Source of the DNA: Geosiphon pyriformis uo1 | Lineage: Eukaryota > Fungi > Glomeromycota | Direction: 5' to 3' | Length of the DNA: 64,000 bases | NCBI GenBank assembly: GCA_016748015.1 | Contig: JAAOMT010000029.1 | Location: forward strand, 236,896-300,895 | Shown: one piece after another, positions 20,510 to 64,000 of the stretch | How the letters are laid out: each line of letters opens with the position of its first letter | How positions within the stretch are numbered: the stretch's first letter is position 1 | Notes under the pieces: model-generated | Told to the model about the DNA's origin: nothing | Databases searched by the model: none | The model's input: the letters and a program-made list of their open reading frames with translations, nothing else | Made by a program: the position numbers and the translations under genes

Positions 20510-21230
20510 CAGTGGCAAAGTTTTACAAAAAAATTAAAAATACAAAAGATTAGGCTTCAACAATCAAAGATCAAAATTATTTGACGGATATTGAGAAATG
20601 CAGGCTAGCCTAAATTTTTTTATTAAAAAACTGAATTCATTGATAGTGAGAAAGTGTTTTCAAAAAGCGTGAGAACGGGGACGTTCTAAAACTCATTTTA
20701 ACGATATAATAGGCAGCTTTCAAAGAAACCAAGATTTTCCTTTCCAAAATTTTTTCTGTTGCAATTTGGACCAAAACTAGATGTAACCTAAGCTCATGAC
20801 TAAATGGCAAAAACCTATTTTTCCGTACTCTTTGTAGATTTAATCTGTTCCCATGGTGTGTGTCAGTATTTTCCTCAATTGATGCCCCCATTGTGTTGAA
20901 AGATAAGTCAACTAATTTTTCTTTGTTTCCCAAACTTACATAATCTATTTAATTTATAATCAAATGGAGAAAGATAAGTGATAAAAAAAATTACAATTTG
21001 AAAATCTGCTTTCGTTGATCCGATAAAAAAGTACCCAACTGTAATCATTTGAGTAAGTATTTTAGACAAAAGCCTTGTATAAATTTAGTCGAATGTTTTT
21101 TCTTGACCCGTTAGAAACCTGAAAACCCATTAAACCGTTTATCAGGGAGATTTTTTAAATAAATCGAACTTTTGGTGGATGTAAAGCCTTTTTGAAATAT
21201 GTAAAAAAAATTTAAATTTTATATAATAAA

Positions 21231-21268
<38 letters not shown>

Positions 21269-21269
21269 G

Positions 21270-22588
21270 ATGAGCATTTTTTTCATTCAAAAAATCAACT
21301 TTAAAAGGAAAATTTTGTTTAATTCACCATTTCTTTTAATTAGCATTTGCTTTTTCATTTTAAGATTCTTACATAACGGGATTCAAGATAATATCGAAAA
21401 TTACATTGGTATCAAACCATTTGTTACGAATGAGTCAAAAATTTTCATAAAAAATGTCACGAAAACAATAAATCAACTCTATAACATGAACAATAATAAA
21501 AAGAAAAAACGAAAGCCAGATCATTTTGACCGAACCAATTTTCGACGAAAAGTGGAGAATCTTGATTTACTATACAAATTTGCAAAGTTTGCTTCTTATT
21601 CCAAAAGAGCTTCTTGCTTGATTGGTCATGAGAACAGAATGGCTGAAGGGATATATGGTAAGAAAAAAAATTTTAGAGAGTAAAACCTAAATTTTTAATG
21701 TTACTTATGCCATTATTTTTTGATTTTGGTTATCTACATTCATTTAAAAAAAAGCTTTTGCAGAATCACATGATCAAGAAGTCACAATAGCGATAAAAGG
21801 AACCAAATATGATTTTCAGAAATGGATGAACCGAAAAAATGTCTTAATTGAATATCCCGGAAATTTTGATCATGTTAAACCTCGAGTTGACCTTACATTT
21901 TATGACGATTACGTGAAATCAAGACACAATTTGATAGAACTAGTAAAAACTGAGTTATCGCGACACATAAAATCTTTTCCTCGCATTTCATTGGTTGGTC
22001 ACGGCTTAGGGGGTGGTAAGGAATTTTTATTTTCAATTATCGTCATTTTTTACTAAACTTCTCTTGAAATTTAAAATTATTCTTTTTTGGATCTAGTATA
22101 TGCAATATTTTTAGCTCTCGAATTACAAGAATCGAAAATCATGAATCCCTTAAATGTTTTTACTTTTGGTCAGCCGAGAATTGGAGATGTTGCCTTTGCC
22201 GATTATGTCAATAAAAAATTATTCATTTTTCGTATAACACTGGAAGGTGACTACGTTCCAGTGATTCCATTTCGAACAGATCCAGGACGAGGATATTTAC
22301 ATCATCGAAACGAATTTTTTATAGACGTACCTTGTGACTGTAATCAGGAATCTGTTGTTTACGAGTGTAGAGGTTTTAAAAATCCTGAATATGGATATTT
22401 TGATGAACCACCAGTATGTATTTTCAATGTATTTTTTTATTTTTTTGCGAAAATGGAATATGTTATATAAAATTCCTGTTTTTCTTTAGTATTGCATCAA
22501 TGCTTGTGAATTAAATGTGGATCAACGAATAAAGATTCATAATGGTCCTTATTTTGGTCAAATGATGGGACAATGCCAGGATGATTAA
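21270..22588 (+). CDS. Class-3 lipase-like protein A; nucleophile elbow GHGLGG (Ser replaced by Gly); 4 exons
   Basis: Exons 21270-21657, 21755-22015, 22096-22413, 22490-22588. Motifs: AIKGT, LVGHGLGG, VFTFGQPRIGD, GDYVPVIP, YLHHRNEFFI, IHNGPYFG. N-terminal hydrophobic anchor. Confidence 0.88.
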
Positions 22589-31483: not shown

Positions 31484-32017
31484 ATGTTTTCAAAAGTATC
31501 AATTTCTTTCGCTCTTCTCTTTTTAATTGTCGTTATCGTTTCATTATCAATGGTCTCGGCAGTACCACTTCCATATGAAAAAAGAGGTTACATTCTCAAT
31601 GGTGTCGATATATCTACATGTCCTCAAGATCGTTTCAACATTGGGTGTGGTAACAAAGGATACGGAAACATTGGGAATAATAATATCGGAGATCAAAATA
31701 TTGGAGATCAGAATAGTGGTAACCAGAATATTGGGGATAAAAATGGTGTAAAAGATAAGGTCGCTTATAACGGAAATCAAAATATTGGAAATGAGAATGG
31801 TGTGTCTAATATAGGTAAAAATAACGGGAACCAAAATATTGGAAATAAGAATGGGGTATCTAATATAGGTAAAGATAACGGGAACCAAAATGTTGGAACT
31901 GGTAACGGGTCTTATAATAATGGATCTTATAACGGAAATCGAAATGTCGGTGGAAAAAACGGGAAAGGTAATGGTTCCCACCGCGCTAGACCGCATAAGT
32001 CGCATTCAAGTTCATAA
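31484..32017 (+). CDS. Small secreted Gly/Asn-repeat protein, copy A (177 aa; signal peptide, KR site, CX8C, GxxNIGxxN repeats)
   Basis: Intact ORF with hydrophobic signal ending VSA, pro-peptide VPLPYEKR, then periodic Gly/Asn repeats. An intact paralogue lies nearby. Confidence 0.85.
   Translation: MFSKVSISFALLFLIVVIVSLSMVSAVPLPYEKRGYILNGVDISTCPQDRFNIGCGNKGYGNIGNNNIGDQNIGDQNSGNQNIGDKNGVKDKVAYNGNQNIGNENGVSNIGKNNGNQNIGNKNGVSNIGKDNGNQNVGTGNGSYNNGSYNGNRNVGGKNGKGNGSHRARPHKSHSSS
31769..31876 (+). repeat. 54-bp tandem duplication (18-codon unit) within Gly/Asn-repeat gene A
   Basis: 31769-31822 and 31823-31876 encode NGNQNIGNENGVSNIGKN and NGNQNIGNKNGVSNIGKD. Confidence 0.9.
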
Positions 32018-33084
32018 AATGTTGAATTCAAAGACTCCACAGATTTAGAATGTAGAATTTTGGAGATCAATTATCATTGTCAATTTAAACAGAAAAACTT
32101 TTTAAATCATGTTCCATAGAATAGAAACTTTTAATGTAGACATCATCAAGAAAGTATATAAATAACTCATTTCATACTCAATTAAGTTTAAATAAAAAAC
32201 TTTTTCGAATAATTTAATTATCAACAATTAACTTTTAACATTCACCAAATAAAGATGCGAAAATCTCCATTGATACCCACTTAAGCTTGGATTTCCTAAA
32301 CTGATTTTGATCAAATTGTTCGATCATCAAATGATATCATAAATTGAAGTCTAGCTTTTTCAACAGCACATCTTTCTATGATGATTAATCCTATACCTGT
32401 TTTTCAATTTAAGCAATAATTCACAACCCCATATCGAGAAATGTAAATCATAAAGTGAACAAACAAATATTGGGGCTATTCATTTTCGAATTTCTTGAAA
32501 AGGTTGAAACAATGTGTTTTGAATTTAGATTGTTCAGGCTCACAACAAAAGAATAAGATTTTTCCCAAATTTGAAAACGAACATTATAGCCAAATCATAT
32601 CACAAATTTATTAATCTTCGAGTTTGAAAAATTTGGATATAAAAGATTATTTTATATGGTCATTAAATTTAAAAGAAACAAAATTCTTTTTTTGTTTAAA
32701 TTAAAATGAAACAACACAAACCCCCATAATTATAAAGGAAGCTGGCTTATAAGATCAAAACCAAATTAAAAAAGTCTTCAAGACAAAATATTGTTGAAGT
32801 TAAAAAGTATGAATCTTTTAAAAACATATTTGGAATAGCAAAACGAAACTTCAAATTAAAACACAATATCCCCAAATTTGATATTTAAGTCGTGAGCTTG
32901 AAACAAAAAATTTTAAAGAGACTCAAAAATATTCACAGCAGATTAAAGTTTTAAAATTAAAGAAATTTTAAATTTTTTTTGAATACAAGCCAAATTTATA
33001 ATCAAAAATTTTAGTTCATCCAAAATTTTCTCGTAAATTCTAAAGGATTTATTTACCAGTTGATAAAAATAAATAAATAAATAA

Positions 33085-33122
<38 letters not shown>

Positions 33123-33289
33123 TACATAAAAATGAATCATTCTATGTGAATGTCTTTGATTTGATGCCTAATAAATATTGTAATTATGACAAGATTAATT
33201 AACTCGATTTTATGAATAAATATGCTGTTTGAATGTATTTTCTAAAATTTAAAGATCCTAATATAACTTTTTGAATTCTATCCTTTAGT

Positions 33290-33724
33290 CTAAGGTTGAG
33301 CATTAGATGTCCCGTTTTTGTTACCAACATTTCGATTTCCGTTATCAGATCCATTATTAAAAGACCCGTTACCATTACCAACATTTTGGTTTCCGTTATC
33401 TTTACCTATATTAGATACCCCATTATCATTTCCAACATTTTGATTTCCATTATGAGCATCACCATTTTTGCTCCCAACATTCTGATTACCCCTATTCTGA
33501 TCTCCAATATTTTGATCTCCGATATTATTATTCCCAATGTTTCCGTATCCTTTGTTACCACACCCAATGTTGAAGGGATCTTGAGGACATGTAGATATAT
33601 CGACACCATTGAGAATGTAACCTCTTTTTTCATATGAAAGTGGTACTGCCGAGACCATAGATAATGAAACGATAAAGACAATTAAAAAGAGAAGAGCGAA
33701 AGAAATTGATACTTTTGAAGACAT
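33290..33724 (-). CDS. Small secreted Gly/Asn-repeat protein, copy B (144 aa from the ATG at 33724)
   Basis: Near-identical to copy A over signal peptide, KR site and Cys cap. It has one 18-aa unit fewer and a different C-terminus, and is convergent with copy A. Confidence 0.85.
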   Translation of the reverse strand: MSSKVSISFALLFLIVFIVSLSMVSAVPLSYEKRGYILNGVDISTCPQDPFNIGCGNKGYGNIGNNNIGDQNIGDQNRGNQNVGSKNGDAHNGNQNVGNDNGVSNIGKDNGNQNVGNGNGSFNNGSDNGNRNVGNKNGTSNAQP

Positions 33725-41826: not shown

Positions 41827-43257
41827 ATGGTTTATATATTTATTGAAACTAAAAACAAAAAAAAACAAAAAAAAAAACCGTTTTTGTTTCTAACTCCGAT
41901 GTTATTAGTTTTTTTCCTAATAGCTCTTGATCTAATCATTTGCTTTTCAAAAGAATATACTTATGATAAATTATTAAACTTCCAACATATCAAATCTTAT
42001 CAGAAAAAAATTTATAATATTGATCAAATAAACAAAAGCAAAAGAAATGAGAAAAATTTTCTTGCAATAAGCGTCACATTAGATACTGATATTCCACCTC
42101 CAACAAGATTTACAGATCAAAAAGTTCTGTCATTGCTTCGCTCAAGTGCAATAAAAGCGGCTCAAATCTCAAAGAATTGGAATTTAACTCGACAAATTTC
42201 AAGCAATGTTTTTGGTATAAAGCATTTTTTTAGAATCTTAATTTGATTTGATTTAATTGACTAGAAAAATAATTGGAATCTCAATTAAAATATTAAAATA
42301 TTATTCATAGTCAGCATAGAACAAGTTCAATCATCAAACCAAGTCACAGATCCAAAATCAAAACCTACTCTGTACTTTTCATTTAAGGGACCTCATCTCA
42401 CTATTTCTGATTGGAGAATGTTCGACAGATTTGTAAGATATACTGATGGCCCAATTCAAGGATCTCTCATCTGTATTGGAATTTTAGAAACTTTTGAGGC
42501 AGGGAAAAAAAAGTTTGAAGATTTGCTTCTACCCTTAAATTTGAATAATATCAAGTTGACGGATAGTAATTCGGCTCATTACGTTTTTACTGGGTTCAGT
42601 ATTGGTGGTGGTAAGTTGCATTTACAAAGTTTCAAACTATTGAGATTCAACAATTTCCCCTTGTAATTTTTTTTTTTAACATGTACTCACTAATTCTATC
42701 AAACAAAATATTTATTCATAATTGATCTCACCAGCCATGGCAGTTCTTTTTGCACTCTTTTTTGCTCAAAAATATTCTATAAGACCTAAAGTAATCACTT
42801 TTGGGCAGCCACGAATAGGAGATATTGGATTTGCTCTCTTTATCAAAGAACATGTTGATGTTTATCGAGTGACACATGGAAATGATGAACTTACCTTGTT
42901 TCCTAACTATCCAAATTATCGACATCATGAGTTAGAGTACTGGATTCCAAATCAGAATCAATGTGAATGTGACAATTTACCTATTAATGATGATAGTGAA
43001 TACGAATTTCCAGTTGTATTCAAATGCCTTACAAGGAATTTCATTGAACATCCGGTAGGTAATTCTGATGAAATTAAATTAAAAACTTTGTCAAATTTTT
43101 TATGCTAAAATTTTTCGCTCATTTTCCCGACCTATAATCGAAGAATTGCAATTCAAATACTAATAGAGAATATGATAAATTCAACAATTCTGAAGAATGG
43201 TTAAGTTGGATGGAGGATATTCACAGAGGTCCTTATTTTGGTATTATGATGGGGTAA
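41827..43257 (+). CDS. Class-3 lipase-like protein B; elbow GFSIGG (Ser retained); 4 exons
   Basis: Exons 41827-42214, 42311-42610, 42735-43054, 43144-43257. Motifs: FSFKG, FTGFSIGG, ITFGQPRIGD, RVTHGND, YRHHELEYWI, IHRGPYFGIMMG. The start codon is uncertain. Confidence 0.85.
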
Positions 43258-47072: not shown

Positions 47073-47947
47073 GAGTTCCCGTATTGAAAATTAAAAAATT
47101 GTAAAATTAAAATCAATCCCAAGAAAACAGGTTTGATTCCTCAACTGGATTGAATTTTTTTAGTTTTTACACATTATTTTAATGAATTCTTTTTAATAAT
47201 TCTTAATGGTTTAACCTTTTATAATTAATCTTATTATTCTGAAATGTATTATCCACAAGCTAATTTCAAAAATAATTGAATACAAGCATGATATTTTCAT
47301 CTAATGTTAAATTAAAAATTTAGCCATAGATTCAAAAAACATACTTTTTTTGTCTAACCCAATAGCTTTTTAATGGAACACTAATAATAATATTGAAATA
47401 AAATTGTTCATGATAAAAGTTTAAGGGAAATTACCTTAAAAAAAATATCTTAACCTTGTTAATTGGCTTTTGATTGTGCTTACAACTTCTAGGTACTACG
47501 ATATGAAATTTGAAGTTAAACTATAATTTGCCTATTTAATATTGAAAATTATGGAAATTTTTATGATTATTTTCTAATTTTGAATAAATGCTAATTAATC
47601 CAAAGATTTTCTTGGAAATTTTTTTGTAACCTCAATAAAAAAAATATATCAAAAATCACAAAATTATAAATTCTCTTAAAAATAAATCAATTGAGAAAAG
47701 ATTCTAAAAATTGATGTTTTGATATAATTCGATGAATTTAAAAAGGTGATGCATATATTTGTTGCATCCTTTATTGGGAGGTGAGGGAATTAGTTATGCC
47801 GAAATCTTTTTTATCAGCATTTTAATTAAAATCATGAAAATCGCTTATTATTTACTTTTAAAAAACCGTTTGTTGCTTGAATTCAATGTTTACTTGTAAT
47901 TCGCAAATTTTAGGAATACATGTAGCCTAATTTTTTTTTTAAAAAAA

Positions 47948-49506
47948 ATGAATTATTTTAAATCTGGTTTTCAACGGCTTTATCCCTCAAAATTTAGATC
48001 AATCCTAAATTTTTCCCTTTTAACAATATTTCTTGCTTTAATCTTAATAAATTTATTTAAATACGACCTTTACCTTTTTCCAAAAATTTTAAAAATTACC
48101 AATACTAAAAAAAATTTAAAAAACTTTACAAAAATTCAAGAGAAAATAAATATTGTTTTAAATTCAAATTTTTCTCAATTTCAACAACAACAACAACAGC
48201 AACAACAAGATTTTATAAATCGAAAAAGAGGTTTCAAAACTCGAAATCATCCACCCAAAACCCCATTAATAAATCAAGAAAATGAATTTATAAAGTATTA
48301 TTCAAAATTAGCTTTCTTTGCTAATTATGCATATTGTTATACGAGCCCGATGGATATCTCGAAAGGCCGAATAAAAGGTAGAATTATTTAAAGACTTTTT
48401 TTGATAATTTTCGCCATGAAAAAATTAAAAAATTATCAAAATATTTTTATTAATAATTTTTTGTTTGAATAGTGGGTATCCACATAAATCCTTCTTCAAA
48501 AGATATTTATGTATATTTTAAAGGAATGGAAATGACAAAAAATGACTGGCAACTGCGAAAAGTGAAATTAGTTCCATTTCAAGTTACAGAAATGAAAACA
48601 AATTTTTTAATCAGAGTTGATGAGGAATACTATAACGATGTGGTTTCGATATCTCGTTCTCTTTTCGGCCGAATATGTGCTCACATTCTTAGAGCTAGGA
48701 ATGAATTAGGTGTGCAAGTTTTTTTTATTGGACATGGCGTTGGTGGTGGTGAGTAAAATATGAATTTTACTCTTGTATTTAAAATTTACAAAAAAATATT
48801 CCTTTTAACTTTCTAATTCATTTATTTTTATAGCATATGCAGCAATTGCAGGCCTAATGTGGCAAATTGAAACAGGAATTGGGAGCTATCCAAAAACTTA
48901 TCCAAATGGATTTTATTCATCGGAAAATTATCACGTTGTGACATTCGGACAGCCACGTACTGGCAATGTCCCATTTGCGAAAATGGTCAACACATTATTA
49001 GATGTAACACGTATAACACACACAAACGATCCTGCCTCACATTTTCCTCCGGCAGAAAGTGGAATTGATTTTTTGGGACATCATGATTATGAATTTTGGT
49101 TAGCTACTCGGAATTGTGATTGCCCCGGAGATGTGCCAAGTGAAAAGGAGTTAGTTAATGAATATGCAGTATATTCATGCCCGGGGTACTTTTTGAAACA
49201 AAATGAGACGAAACGTGTAAAAAAACAAAATTTGCTTTTTGAAAAAAGATTCTTTGAAGTTGAGGATGAAGAATCAGGTGAAAATCAGGTAAGAATATTA
49301 TTGATCACATTTACCAAAAAATAAATTTCATTATTTAAAGGACTTCTAAAATAACATTGTAATTTATTTCGATTTTTAACCTTCAGGAATGTAGCATAGG
49401 ACAATCGATTTCTGAGCTCCCAAACAATTATATACATAAAGGAAGATATTTTGGCGTTACAATGAATGATTGTATTAATTTCCGACCTCGAAATTTAAAA
49501 GCATAA
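47948..49506 (+). CDS. Class-3 lipase-like protein C; elbow GHGVGG (Ser replaced by Gly); 4 exons
   Basis: Exons 47948-48377, 48473-48748, 48834-49288, 49387-49506. Motifs: ANYAYC, VYFKG, FIGHGVGG, VTFGQPRTGN, RITHTND, HHDYEFW, IHKGRYFG. N-terminal anchor, short polyQ and RKR site. Confidence 0.88.
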
Positions 49507-59137: not shown

Positions 59138-61282
59138 CAGTCAGACCTCCATAAAAAAACTTTCGATAAAAGAACAACCTCTTACAAAGAACATTTTTTT
59201 ATAGAACCAATTGATTAATTAACAATTTTCCCTTTATAAGAACAAGAACATAATTTTATCAAACGTTTATTCGAAATTTACCTTCATATAAGAACAAATA
59301 TCACGTGCTAGATTTTAATTGGTAATTGGGAAAAGAGTTAGAACGTATTGAATTGATTTTATCCTAACTTTCTTTTAAATTGATTTATATTGGACTTACT
59401 CTTTTTAATCTTGTCTGTTTTCATGTACAGCCACTTAGCCTCTATTGTATTATCACAATGTCAGAACCTTTATTCAAAAAACAAAAACAAGCAGCAGTTA
59501 GTAAAGAAATTTGTCAATATTCCAAAAATCACTATGGCACAAAACATGATAATATTGTAGCTTACTTCAATCATAAATATCCAGAACTCCATATTTCTCA
59601 TCCAACTGTCTCTAAGATAATCAAAAAGCATGCAAAGTGGTTGAATATTGAAATTGATGAAGTCTCAGAAAGATCTATTCGACACAAAAGCGTTAAATTT
59701 CCATTATTAGAACAAGTAACTGCAGCCACTATCGAATTCAATGATCAACTAATTAAAGAGAAAGAAAGAAAATTTGCCAAACTTCTTGGTATGCACAAAA
59801 ATGAAATACAATTCTCAAATGGATGGGTTCAAAAATTCAAAAAACAAAAACCAGTTACGTGTTTACCGATTTCATGGTGAAGCAGGAAGTGTATCAACTG
59901 AAAGTTTACCAGAAAAATGAAGAAAATTAAAAACCATTATATCCGAATTTGATCCTGCTGACATATATAATGCTGACGAAACAGGATTATTTTTTTGGTA
60001 TGGGACCAAATCAAACACTTGCAAAATGTTGAAATGCAGGAAAAAAATTGGTATATTATATTTACCAATTGTTATCGTTATATATTATTGTTATATTAAA
60101 TTAATTGGGTTTTTTATAGGATAAATCTCGGATTACAATTCTTCTTGCTACAAATTCAACTGGATCTCACAAATTGCAACCTTTAGTAATTGGACATGCA
60201 AAAAATCCAAGATGCTTTAAAGGAATTAATACTTCCAACCTACCTGTAATTTACAAATTCAATTCCAAAGCATGGATGCGCTCAGATATATGGAAAGCAT
60301 GGCTCAAATATATAAATGAAGGCTTTCGAATTCAAAATCGGCATATATTACTTTTGGTTGTAATACAACTTCTCATCATACTCAAATCGGGGAAGATTCA
60401 TTCCAATTAACCAATATTACTTTGCACTATTTTCCTCCAAATACAACATCACATCCTCAACCAATGGATGTTGACATTATCAAATTTTTCAAAGGCAAAT
60501 ATAAGCACTTATATTGTCAACATATTTTACATCAATTTGAACAAAAAATTAATATTGAACAGTTAAGTAATATAATATATACAGTATTATTATCATTATA
60601 TATTATAAAATTTTATCTAATATTAATTTATTTTTTAGAAATAAATTAAACATAAAACAAGTAATTGATTATGTTGTTCAATTATGGTTTCAAGTAACAC
60701 CTGTTACAATTCATAACTGTTGGCAAAAAATGGATATTCTTTTCTATAATCAAGAATTAGAAATTCAAGAATCCGAAACATCAATTGCTATAGATATATT
60801 CAACAATTTACCATCAAATGCACAACAATTGGTCAAAAATCTCGAAGATTATACTGTAGCAGTTGATGAATTATTGGCAACTGAAAATATTCTTGATGAT
60901 AATGAAATTGTAGATATGGTTTTACCCGATGCTCATATTGAAACTAATACAATTAATGACTCGGAAGAAGAATTAGAAGAATCTCCACCTGCTATAATTA
61001 CAATTACAGAAGCATAAAAAATGTAACTAGATTAGAAGAGCAATTAGCAAAAGAAAATTTTAGTATAGAAAACCAAAATTTACTTAGAAAAAAATTATAT
61101 AAATACGAGAAAATTCTAAAAAACAGGTAACAATTAATCAATATTTTAATAATAATAATTGATTGATTTAATAAATAAATATAGTTTATTTGATAATAAT
61201 TATAAAACTCTATAAAAGAACACCTTTATAATGGAACATAATTTGCATGTCCCAATTGTGTTCTTTTATAGAGGTCTGACTG
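59138..61282 (+). mobile_element. Full-length pogo/Tigger (CENP-B/DDE_1) DNA transposon with inactivated transposase
   Basis: TIRs CAGTCAGACCTC(C/T)ATAAAA at both ends, flanked by TA (59136-37 and 61283-84). Transposase motifs: HTH (ISHPTVSKII), FSNGWVQKFK, IYNADETGLF, NSKAWM, PPNTTSHPQPMD. Contains frameshifts and stops. Confidence 0.95.
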
Positions 61283-61284
61283 TA

Positions 61285-64000
61285 TAACAAAATAAAATAG
61301 AAATAAAATAATAGTTTTAATATAGAAAACTAAATTAAGAAAATTTTTTTATGTTTTAACAAAGTATAGTCTAATTATTATCTAATACAATTCAATAATA
61401 AATGTTTTAATAACAAATTAGTTAATGAAAATTTTTAGTATAATAAATAATTTAAAACCAAATTTTAATAGATCGAAAAAAACAGTTTTATAATTAAAAA
61501 TCAAATAATTTAAATTTAAATATTTGTAATAATATTACTATTTAAAAGTGTTAATTAAAATATAATTTTTTTTTAATCAAAGTTTTTAAAAAATTTTAAA
61601 CTCTTTTTCTCTTCTATTTTCATAAGCAAAAATAAAAATGTTGTGACTCTTTTATTTTCTAAAGCACTTTATAATATTTTATTGGTAATTAAGTTGGTTT
61701 TTTTTATTCTTTTTTTACTGTTGCTTAAATAACTAAAAAAGCCAAAATGGCTAAGAAACAACTTTTTTAATTATCTGTTATAATTAATAACAACTCTTTT
61801 AAATTGCTGAAAAAAAATTTCTGGTATTTTTGGTATTAGTTTTAATATTTTAAAACCAAGCTATTCTTATCAATTAAAAAATCCAGATTGCTTTTTTGAG
61901 CATTAATAAATTTTTAATTACAATAATAAAAAATAAATTACATAAGTATCTTGGTATTTTTTTTGGTAATTAATAGACTTTTCAGGTTTTGTTTAATTAA
62001 AGTACATTTAAATGTTAAATTTTTTTCAAACATGGTTTTAAAAAAAGCTATTTTGAATAAACAATTTCATTATTTGGTCTTAAAAGTTTTAAATTCTATT
62101 AGTAATTACAGATTTCAATTTAGCTTTGTGTTAAAAAATATGTACAATAAATAAGATATATTTTAATAATTCTTTTTTTATGAAAAAATTATTAAATAAA
62201 AAACAGTATTACTTTAACTAAAAGTGTTTTTAATATTAAAAAAACTTAATTTTAAAAATTTTATGTTTATTTAATCTATATTAATGATTAAATACTTGAA
62301 TAATTATGTATTTAATAATATTAATTTAATTTAATTGCATATTTTATGCTCTAATAACTTGTGATTTTAGTATAATTTATAAAAACTTAATAAAAACCAA
62401 TCTAATTAATATTAATATTTTTATAAATAAATCTTTAATAAATTTGAATTTTTTTATATAACCAATAGTACTTTAATATTTTTTAAGAATTTGGGTTTAA
62501 ACATTAATATAGAAATATATAATCTAATTTTATTTATAATAACTAAATTATAAATAATTGTTTTAGTTTTGAAATACATTTAATATTTAATAATATTATA
62601 ATAAACATAAATAATTAGACTGTTTTAAATATTTGTGTCTTAAAAACTTGTTTTTTTTTATTAGATTTTTAGATTTATTGTTAATTAAAAAAGCAATATA
62701 TAATAAATATTATAAAAAAAATTAAAAGTTATTTAAACCAAGATTAAGAGTTATTTAATTATTTTATTAGTTTAGTAATATTGTTATCTTTTTTATTTTT
62801 TGTTTTAGTATTAAAAAATATATAAAAACTAATATAATAGTAGTTTTTATTAATATTAAATATTTATTATATTTAAAGTAATTAGTTATTATTAAAAATT
62901 TAGTTTTAATACAAATATTATTAATTAAAAAATATAAATTGAATATATTTTTTTTTAGTTTAGCATTTTGACTTATATATAACTGCTAAATATATAAACA
63001 AATATTTTGTTAATTTGTATTTATACATTATAAAAATTATTTATAAAAGATTACTAATTATTATTAAAAAATATTTATAAAATAAATTATATTTTAATAT
63101 TTTGTATTTTTATTATAATAAAATAAAACTTTTTAATTATATGTTTATATATAATATAAATTTAAATATTTATAAAAATTTGTTAATTGTTCATATTATT
63201 TATTAAATTTTTCTAATTTATATATATGTCTTATTATTTTTAATATTTTAAATACTGCTTTTTAGTAAAATTAATATTAAATTATATATGATTTATATAA
63301 AAAATTTATTTTTAAGAAATAATTTTGTAAAGTATTTACAGTTTTAATATTGTTAAAAAAACAGTTTTTAAGTTAATTATTTTTATATATAATTTAGTAA
63401 TTAAATATTATGATAAAATTTAATTATATAAAAAATTAATATAAATAAATTTAATTTAATATACAATAATAATTTAATGCTTTTTGCTATTAGTAATTTG
63501 TTATTAAATAAAATAATTTAATTATTTGATATAATTAAAATTTTTGGCATAAGTTTTAAAACATATATATATTGTTTGTTTTATTTAAATCTAAATAATA
63601 ATATTACTATTAAAATAAATATATAGTATAATTTTAATTAATTCAAGTAATTAATTATATATAATAAATATATAAATTATATTAAGTTTAAAATACTTAA
63701 TTATTAAATTATATTAAATAATAATTAGACTTTATATATTAAAAAAAAATTATTAAGTTTATATAAATATTTTTATGTTTTTATATTTTAATTAAAATTT
63801 AATTATTTTTGGTTTTTGTATTTATTATTTATTATAAAAAATTATTATAATTTTAATATATTATAAAAATTATATTGATTTAAATAAATAATATTTTTAA
63901 AACTAATTAAAAAAATCTTTTTTCTTTCTTATATTCAAATATTTATTAAAAAGTACTTATTTTATAAAGAAGTTTTTAATTATTTAGTATGATAAATCCA
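61285..64000. other. Extremely AT-rich, G/C-eroded non-coding block
   Basis: Almost no G/C and no credible ORF. Similar blocks occur at about 13300-14200, 23700-24250, 28650-29500, 36100-37600, 43500-45100 and 58400-59135. Confidence 0.8.

Follow-up and report, generated by a model that had tools for sequence, protein, structure and literature searches.

What are the two short glycine- and asparagine-rich (G/N-rich) proteins that lie side by side in the genome of the fungus Geosiphon pyriformis, and where does their repeat architecture come from? Their genes, here called gene 1 and gene 2, occupy positions 31,484 to 33,724 of a 64,000-nucleotide stretch of contig JAAOMT010000029.1 (positions 236,896 to 300,895 of the forward strand), referred to below as the window, which is AT-rich fungal DNA (27.5% GC). 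A first-pass annotation, made from the letters alone, proposed a candidate new family of secreted repeat proteins. The genes are real, and they represent a capped variant of a fungal group that has been described but is functionally uncharacterized. Three aspects are new here: the capped form, which is common to Geosiphon and Ambispora, an ordered fold predicted by modeling, and a collinear sequence match to the middle gene of a bacterial cassette.

Two Predicted Secreted Proteins with Two Repeat Zones

Genes 1 and 2 are intronless single open frames in convergent orientation (tail to tail) with a spacing of 1272 bp. Their 5' 294 nt are 94% alike, and no third copy is present within the 64-kb window. 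Both proteins have a hydrophobic N-terminal segment (11-residue hydropathy peak of 3.5-3.7 over residues 9-19), a single KR at residues 33-34 with neither RR nor KK, and C46 and C55 as their sole cysteines, in agreement with the signal peptide, Kex2-type site and single Cys pair claimed for them earlier. The signal peptide and the Kex2 cleavage are predictions read off the sequence (hydropathy and KR). Proline is rare in the mature chains (2/143 and 3/110 residues).

The repeats fall into two zones of different period. At a lag of five residues, the first zone has a self-identity of 0.49 in gene 1 and 0.54 in gene 2; for the second zone the respective values are 0.41 and 0.46 at lag 9, and 0.55 and 0.66 at lag 18. 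None of 20000 shuffles reached the observed value in any of the six lag tests, indicating periodicity beyond chance. The proposed order of five-residue GxxNI repeats followed by nine-residue repeats is thus sound in its periodicity but not in its constant Ile, since K, S, or R alternate at the last position of the 5-mers. The nine-residue motif G-x-x-N-[IVN]-G-x-x-N deserves to be called strict, as the annotation had it: all twelve units fit (seven in gene 1 and five in gene 2). Gene 1 alone has an irregular nine-residue unit ahead of them, between the zones, which is removed in gene 2 by an in-frame 22-codon difference at the zone junction.

The two paralogues differ by 0.055 nonsynonymous (dN) and 0.127 synonymous (dS) substitutions per site over 135 collinear codons. 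When the G and N scaffold positions are defined by the period of gene 1, none of 38 is altered between the paralogues, compared with 9 of 46 other repeat-zone positions (Fisher p 0.003), and four scaffold codons carry silent differences. The G/N scaffold is under purifying selection. The variable columns of the repeats hold a mixture of K, D, E, Q, R, and Y, and each mature chain has two Thr.

The first-pass annotation also noted a likeness to Pentapeptide_2 repeats, and gene 1 matches this Pfam family (PF01469) with 27.7 bits over residues 52-87, above the curated cut-off of 26.4; gene 2, with 14 bits, stays below it. PF01469 is the only Pfam match at E <= 10, and neither the PPE domain (PF00823), the curlin repeat (PF07012) nor an RTX family was matched. 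This family covers the MPTR repeats known from mycobacterial PPE proteins, and phage DUF7666 and green-alga-like Cys-rich proteins with such repeats were also among the matches; the first zone shares their N-x-G-x-x repeat. Unlike PPE and DUF7666 proteins, genes 1 and 2 have no PPE or DUF7666 domain and one Pfam stretch only, and their 9/18-residue zone is missing from those proteins. In four of the Cys-rich alga-like modular proteins (P0020, P0022, P0035, and P0016), a loosely cap-like Cys-x-x-Asp segment precedes the PF01469 repeats. Two known repeat systems can be set aside. Curli (CsgA/CsgB) are ruled out by the missing curlin repeat. The RTX nonapeptide β-roll, whose calcium-binding motif is GGxGxDxUx, is ruled out because the units here have no fixed Asp and no Pfam RTX match.

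Relatives Among Glomeromycotina

GN-rich secreted proteins with KR sites have been reported from Ambispora leptoticha, Paraglomus brasilianum and Geosiphon (PMC8786786). They include GpRIC1-3 of Geosiphon (MH580277-9), named in the context of the Nostoc endosymbiosis; RIC2 has 456 aa and RIC3 470 aa, and the three account for 22.3% (GpRIC1), 5.0% (GpRIC2), and 3.0% (GpRIC3) of the reads of a cDNA library (PMC8786786, Table S9). Two further short GN-rich contigs from the Geosiphon transcriptome shotgun assembly, GGEK01012346 and GGEK01010044, appear in the same table. The group is described as restricted to Glomeromycotina and amyloid-prone by composition, and its members have been proposed to be surface proteins (PMC8786786).

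Genes 1 and 2 share with GpRIC1-3, Amlep_AGL4/5 and Pabra_AGL1/2 a basal Glomeromycotina host (the same species in the case of RIC), a predicted endoplasmic reticulum signal, a pro-peptide ending in KR and followed by Gly, high G+N, low Pro (the group is delimited at <= 6%), and repeats built from GxxN. Identity with RIC2 or RIC3 is ruled out by length (177 and 144 vs. 456 and 470 aa). The Ambispora and Paraglomus sequences in the supplement run from a signal through a short pro-peptide to KR-G and on into G/N repeats that read by eye as 4-4-5, and as printed they have neither a Cys cap nor a 5-mer zone. Genes 1 and 2 differ from them in being short, single-unit and capped, with a period of 5 and then 9/18 rather than a 13-residue period by eye; Pabra_AGL2 repeats its own KR site, whereas genes 1 and 2 have one KR each. 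The two genes belong to this described compositional group and differ from it in build. The earlier statement that no characterized fungal family has this architecture therefore fails as worded, given these GN-rich, KR-containing, signal-peptide proteins, though none of them is functionally characterized.

A closer relative is 7396_t of Ambispora gerdemannii (P0129), which has a signal, KR-G and a C-x5-N-[IV]-G-C cap. Of 150 collected proteins one has this motif, and of 232 bacterial G/N open reading frames (ORFs) none does. The link to Ambispora is drawn from the cap, since only 9 and 26 of 20000 shuffles align with the pre-repeat segment of P0129 as well as genes 1 and 2 do, and from a profile match (E 2.9e-6). 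BLASTP with composition adjustment did not link gene 2 to P0129, and a single-sequence protein search gave 160 candidates, none at E <= 0.001. These comparisons point to a short and apparently new capped variant that is common to Geosiphon and Ambispora.

Two other fungal systems invite comparison. KEX2-processed repeat proteins (KEPs) likewise have a signal peptide, KR and repeats, but their definition asks for four or more fragments once KR/RR (or KK) sites are cut, together with three or more repeated motifs (PMC6339444). Membership is ruled out by the single KR and by repeats without cleavage sites between them. Eac1 of Metarhizium, a GN-rich, glycosylphosphatidylinositol-anchored spore-surface protein with 13% Asn (PMC13373891), is an analogy only, set beside genes 1 and 2 by its description. 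Our literature searches found nothing on RIC function, and of the papers they returned only PMC8786786 covers the fungal group.

A Counterpart in an Alphaproteobacterial Cassette

A search of 1.84 billion representative sequences gave 43 matches at E <= 0.001. Most are 5-mer repeat proteins, either phage-type (DUF7666) or alga-like (14 were scanned), and a few small secreted proteins, one from Nordella, align along both zones. A profile of six such both-zone sequences recovered 74 proteins, many of ~150 aa and from Mesorhizobium. A genome scan with patterns derived from bacterial sequences confirmed 140 places and returned 78 loci (L001-L078), by title nearly all from Alphaproteobacteria, 31 of which are syntenic, Mesorhizobium-type and not independent.

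The loci have a recurrent organization. Three or four G/N-rich ORFs are present in 69 of the 78, and at least three co-oriented G/N genes lie within 400 bp in 66. In 47 loci the genes could be assigned to three types that follow one another as A (13-residue period), B (the type found in the window), and C (9-residue period followed by a non-repeat tail). This multi-paralogue arrangement recalls csgBAC and fapABC, as an analogy. A LuxR-type response regulator lies <= 2.5 kb away in 63 loci (33/47 outside the core set) and a HisKA_3 kinase nearby in 49 (18/47 outside the core set); an HlyD-type protein is found near the cassette in 7 loci and an autotransporter β-domain in 5. The B domain also occurs in longer proteins. 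Among 12 scanned, it is placed ahead of YadA_head repeats in four, these being the four picked as adhesin-like, and is combined with a PEP-CTERM motif in one (L056). Three of the YadA_head-fusion loci (L036, L050, and L059) also contain a free cassette, and Pfam gave no match for the longer proteins of L046 and L052. Its distribution is patchy, with the family present in 7 of 301 genomes from the order (centre included).

B-type proteins (~150 aa; Mesorhizobium, Nordella, Methylobacterium, Aureimonas, and others) resemble genes 1 and 2 in having a signal peptide and in the way their units are ordered and phased, irregular junction included, but lack a KR pro-peptide and the Cys cap. The cap, which the annotation had singled out for searches across fungi and bacteria, is thus shared by the Ambispora protein, while the alphaproteobacterial proteins share the repeat layout.

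Curlin repeats are absent from four of five cassette genomes and CsgG likewise from four of five, nine of nine proteins have no NCBIfam model, and our literature search found no paper on a bacterial G/N cassette. QN-rich rhizobial proteins with YadA or RTX domains have been listed, with no A-B-C cassette in the accessible part of that paper (PMC5922492). A metagenome scan with the fungal alignment gave 325 pattern matches, of which one was confirmed, a phage-like pentapeptide protein without a cap; a plasmid search gave one weak match, to an unrelated pentapeptide protein. In the ESM Atlas, the best score for gene 1 was 0.79, a lead only, and the Nordella protein reached 0.90 to an unnamed bacterial cluster.

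Common Descent or Convergence

When the repeats are parsed into units of four (GxxN) and five (GxxNx) residues, gene 1, P0129, P0086, and P0007 all show 5-mers, a unit of 4, an irregular 9 and then 5-4 repeats, and gene 2 and P0005 have a shortened junction. The irregular unit is present in 64 of 72 B-type ORFs, a count that is partly so by construction, and is missing from P0025, P0002, P0119, a PPE protein, a phage-type protein and all 78 of 78 A-type ORFs. It is not forced by geometry, because P0025 passes from 5-mers to 9-mers without it. P0119, from the bryozoan Watersipora subatra, and the unplaced P0002, P0025, and P0148 are signal-peptide proteins with regular nine-residue G/N repeats from beyond the fungi and Alphaproteobacteria.

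A bacteria-only profile (36 B cores, after six misclassed C-type rows were dropped) scores gene 1 at 33.6, gene 2 at 31.3 and P0129 at 32.7 bits, against a maximum of 21.3 bits for 24 PPE, phage-type and alga-like controls; the bryozoan P0119 scores 28.9 bits. Shuffles with G and N held fixed score as high as the real sequence in 204 of 500 cases for gene 1 and 73 of 500 for gene 2, so these two matches are of the scaffold alone. For P0129 no shuffle of 500 does so, and 4 of 500 do when I and V are also fixed.

The likeness to the bacterial cassette could accordingly be a convergence on one Asn/Gly solenoid grammar, a reading that concerns origin only. The shuffled scores of genes 1 and 2 are what it would predict, and it also accommodates the nine-residue repeats of the bryozoan and unplaced proteins and the absence of the Cys cap from bacterial ORFs. 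It is harder to reconcile with the excess of the Ambispora protein over the same null, and with an irregular-junction unit order that gene 1, Ambispora and bacterial B proteins have in common and that P0025, P0002, P0119, PPE and phage-type proteins lack. The fungal AGL4 and AGL2 sequences, in which 4-4-5 (13-residue) repeats like those of bacterial A genes can be read by eye, speak against it as well. We consider convergence quite possible, at somewhat short of an even chance, and common descent of the fungal and bacterial B-type proteins rather probable on the sequence comparisons. That the passage went from a bacterium to a fungus is no more than the simpler way to read the distribution; transfer is unproven, since the match of genes 1 and 2 to bacterial B proteins is confined to the scaffold.

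Predicted Structure

AlphaFold2 modeled the mature gene 1 product from its single sequence with a mean predicted local distance difference test (pLDDT) of 48, and the fold search with that model was generic. With 53 aligned sequences the mean pLDDT rises to 74.5 and the predicted template modeling score to 0.65, with pLDDT of 82-91 in blocks over mature residues 11-50 and 81-130. A parallel narrow β-solenoid is predicted, in which the 5-mer zone winds into a tight coil and the 9-mer zone into one of 18 residues; Asn ladders and Gly turns would run through these coils. The β-solenoid of the first-pass annotation is thereby retained as a prediction for both repeat zones with relatives aligned.

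The model was compared with a library of 48161 chains, on a scale where Z < 8 denotes a common arrangement. The best match is the UspA1 head (Z 7.7, root-mean-square deviation (rmsd) 3.3, 93 aligned), with the ryegrass ice-binding protein 3ult tied for this place (Z 7.6, rmsd 3.4, 88 aligned, 24% identity); the EibD, BoaA, AtaA, BpaC, and YadA heads follow at Z 6.2-6.5, a beetle antifreeze protein at 5.8 and CsgA at 5.1. These proteins resemble what is predicted for gene 1, a parallel β-solenoid of similar width at an extracellular site, and differ in repeat lengths and motifs, with Z of only 5-7.7 and no Pfam match. Since no match reaches Z 8, the fold search indicates a narrow β-solenoid and neither family nor function.

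Two rivals bear directly on this prediction. The chain could be a monomeric, ryegrass-like β-roll that binds ice or inhibits its recrystallization, as had been suggested, and the high place of 3ult and the likewise disulfide-stabilized beetle protein are in its favor. Adhesin heads score equally well, however. Grass-type ice-binding β-rolls present small residues (Thr/Ser, for example) in a flat, regular array, and genes 1 and 2, with two Thr per chain and mixed, charged variable columns, have no such array. What is left of the suggestion is a generic likeness of fold, and ice binding is quite improbable. The other rival is an intrinsically disordered G/N-rich surface protein, in which the period is a by-product of tandem duplication. 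Repeats of 54 nt at the DNA level, the low pLDDT of the single-sequence model and the published classing of related AGL/IDP proteins (PMC8786786) fit such a chain. Yet drift at silent and other positions has left the scaffold positions unchanged, the register is conserved across fungi and bacteria, and the alignment-based model is confident, all of which leave disorder with little likelihood. The chain may also lack order as a monomer and gain it only when it assembles, which would fit the assembly model set out below.

Proposed Function

We propose that the chains are exported, cut after KR, capped by a disulfide and folded into a narrow β-solenoid, a structural subunit that stacks within a wall or surface matrix. 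This reading follows from the predicted fold, from the occurrence of the bacterial domain both in surface proteins and in a cassette of several paralogues, and from the abundance of the long uncapped RIC relatives; we infer from the GpRIC read shares (PMC8786786) an abundance typical of structural proteins. In this scheme, Kex2 would remove the pro-peptide in the Golgi, a C46-C55 bond would close the N-terminal end, and the chain would fold as two stacked coils of different width, the open C-terminal coil of which could pack onto like subunits in the wall or surface matrix. Since each has a cap and just one unit, the gene 1 and gene 2 products would serve as minor subunits, in the role of cap, seed or adaptor, alongside longer, very abundant, uncapped GpRIC-type proteins. 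The site may be the hyphal wall or the interface that holds Nostoc.

Several points weigh against this proposal. Mature residues 57-72, where few relatives are aligned, have pLDDT < 50, and the alignment behind the confident model is mostly bacterial. All fold matches are of the common-arrangement class, Foldseek gave no match at E <= 0.001, and a profile search against solved (PDB) sequences gave none. GN-rich Glomeromycotina proteins have been classed as intrinsically disordered (PMC8786786), and only organism, signal, KR and composition tie the two genes to GpRIC. Polymerization might also be prevented altogether by the cap at one end. On balance, we give the matrix-subunit proposal an even chance.

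Alternatively, the folded monomer could be a diffusible or wall-bound ligand, lectin-like or an effector, that recognizes or signals to Nostoc. Geosiphon lives in endosymbiosis with Nostoc, the context for which RIC was named (PMC8786786), and the proteins are small, capped and single-unit, with opposite net charge (pI 9.5 and 4.9) and diverging outward positions (the 9 of 46 above); the bacterial domain, moreover, sits at the distal end of YadA-type adhesins. Against this stand the capped relative in Ambispora gerdemannii and the uncapped ones in Ambispora and Paraglomus, which are plant symbionts without Nostoc, and units of 4-5 residues that offer no evident binding pocket or variable loop. 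A ligand of this kind appears unlikely.

The matrix-subunit proposal can be extended to origin. An undescribed alphaproteobacterial G/N fiber cassette, with a 13-residue major subunit A, a two-geometry adaptor B and a tailed C beside a LuxR-type two-component pair, might have been taken up by an ancestor of the basal Glomeromycotina; A would have become the abundant Kex2-cut RIC/AGL proteins and B the capped proteins, which jointly would build a Geosiphon matrix to capture and house Nostoc. This extended scenario is speculative, and we hold it as doubtful.

The Locus and Its Surroundings

The features of the two genes and of selected bacterial loci are collected in Table 1.

Table 1. Coordinates of the repeat genes in the window and of related bacterial features (locus:positions).
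Feature	Position	Strand	Basis or remark
Gene 1	31484..32017	+	Single-exon ORF, 177 aa; mature 143 aa, 47% G+N, pI 9.5
Gene 1 predicted signal peptide, residues 1-26	31484..31561	+	Hydropathy; cleavage site inferred
Gene 1 pro-peptide ending in KR, residues 27-34, Kex2-type site	31562..31585	+	Sequence; cleavage inferred
Gene 1 cap, C46 and C55 (C-x5-N-I-G-C)	31586..31648	+	Motif common to Ambispora gerdemannii 7396_t
Gene 1 five-residue GxxNx zone, residues 52-87	31637..31744	+	PF01469; predicted ordered coil
Gene 1 irregular 9-residue junction unit, residues 88-96	31745..31771	+	Position and length as in Ambispora 7396_t and bacterial B-type genes
Gene 1 seven 9-residue units, 18-residue super-period, residues 97-159	31772..31960	+	Repeat analysis
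Gene 1 C-terminal tail, basic (His, Arg, Lys)	31961..32014	+	Sequence and predicted structure; low confidence in model
Gene 2	33290..33724	-	Single-exon ORF, 144 aa; mature 110 aa, 50% G+N, pI 4.9; inverted paralogue of gene 1
Gene 2 predicted signal peptide and pro-peptide ending in KR, residues 1-34	33623..33724	-	Cleavage inferred
Gene 2 cap, C46 and C55	33560..33622	-	Sequence
Gene 2 five-residue zone and shortened junction, residues 52-92	33449..33571	-	Repeat analysis
Gene 2 five 9-residue units, residues 93-137	33314..33448	-	Repeat analysis
Three-gene cassette, examples	L034:5188-6693, L033:5322-6656, L047:5183-7213		
B domain N-terminal to YadA_head repeats	L036:5914-7383, L050:5791-7404, L057:1699-3111, L059:5911-7215		
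B domain in longer proteins	L046:6001-7125, L052:5911-7536, L056:5932-7023, L066:5335-7221		Glycine-rich RTX-like repeats by eye

The protein collection contains neither exact sequence, and the profile search gave no Geosiphon protein among those of 67-310 aa; the genes may therefore be missing from the public proteome. In one run (X1) of uncertain type, RNA or not, a 355-nt contig of depth 9.5 is identical to gene 2 over 33370-33724. A 1664-nt contig of depth 367 has short stretches related to the 9-mer zone and is possibly a longer family member; its length prompts the guess that it could be a RIC-type transcript. The contigs of this run cover none of the gene flanks.

Long open frames, rich in Ile, Ser, and Val, run antisense over both repeat genes (31547-32005 on the minus strand and 33275-33637 on the plus strand) and are most likely a by-product of the repeat codons. 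An arrestin gene nearby matches Geosiphon pyriformis G9A89_005695 with 100% identity across 70% of the query, the next best match being Ambispora at 57%. Three separate class 3 lipase genes (PF01764) are found inside 30 kb (21216-22470, 41827-43108, and 47900-49324). A broken Tc5/pogo-type transposase, with a PF03221 match in its first piece, lies at 59368-61017, and positions 62001-64000 are extremely AT-rich (9.5% GC) and contain no N.

Significance

The most abundant transcripts reported from Geosiphon encode G/N-rich secreted proteins that have been published as disordered and unique to Glomeromycotina (PMC8786786). Two points presented here run against that view, an ordered fold predicted by modeling and bacterial counterparts recognized in sequence comparisons. 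Together they suggest an ordered β-solenoid family that includes capped minor members and has counterparts in soil bacteria that can be cultured. To our knowledge, Geosiphon is not transformable. The bacterial cassette can be deleted and imaged in Mesorhizobium or Methylobacterium, which makes the question testable. If the cassette builds fibers, it would be a new bacterial surface-fiber system next to curli and Fap, and a candidate case of transfer from a bacterium to a fungus close to the base of the arbuscular mycorrhizal lineage.

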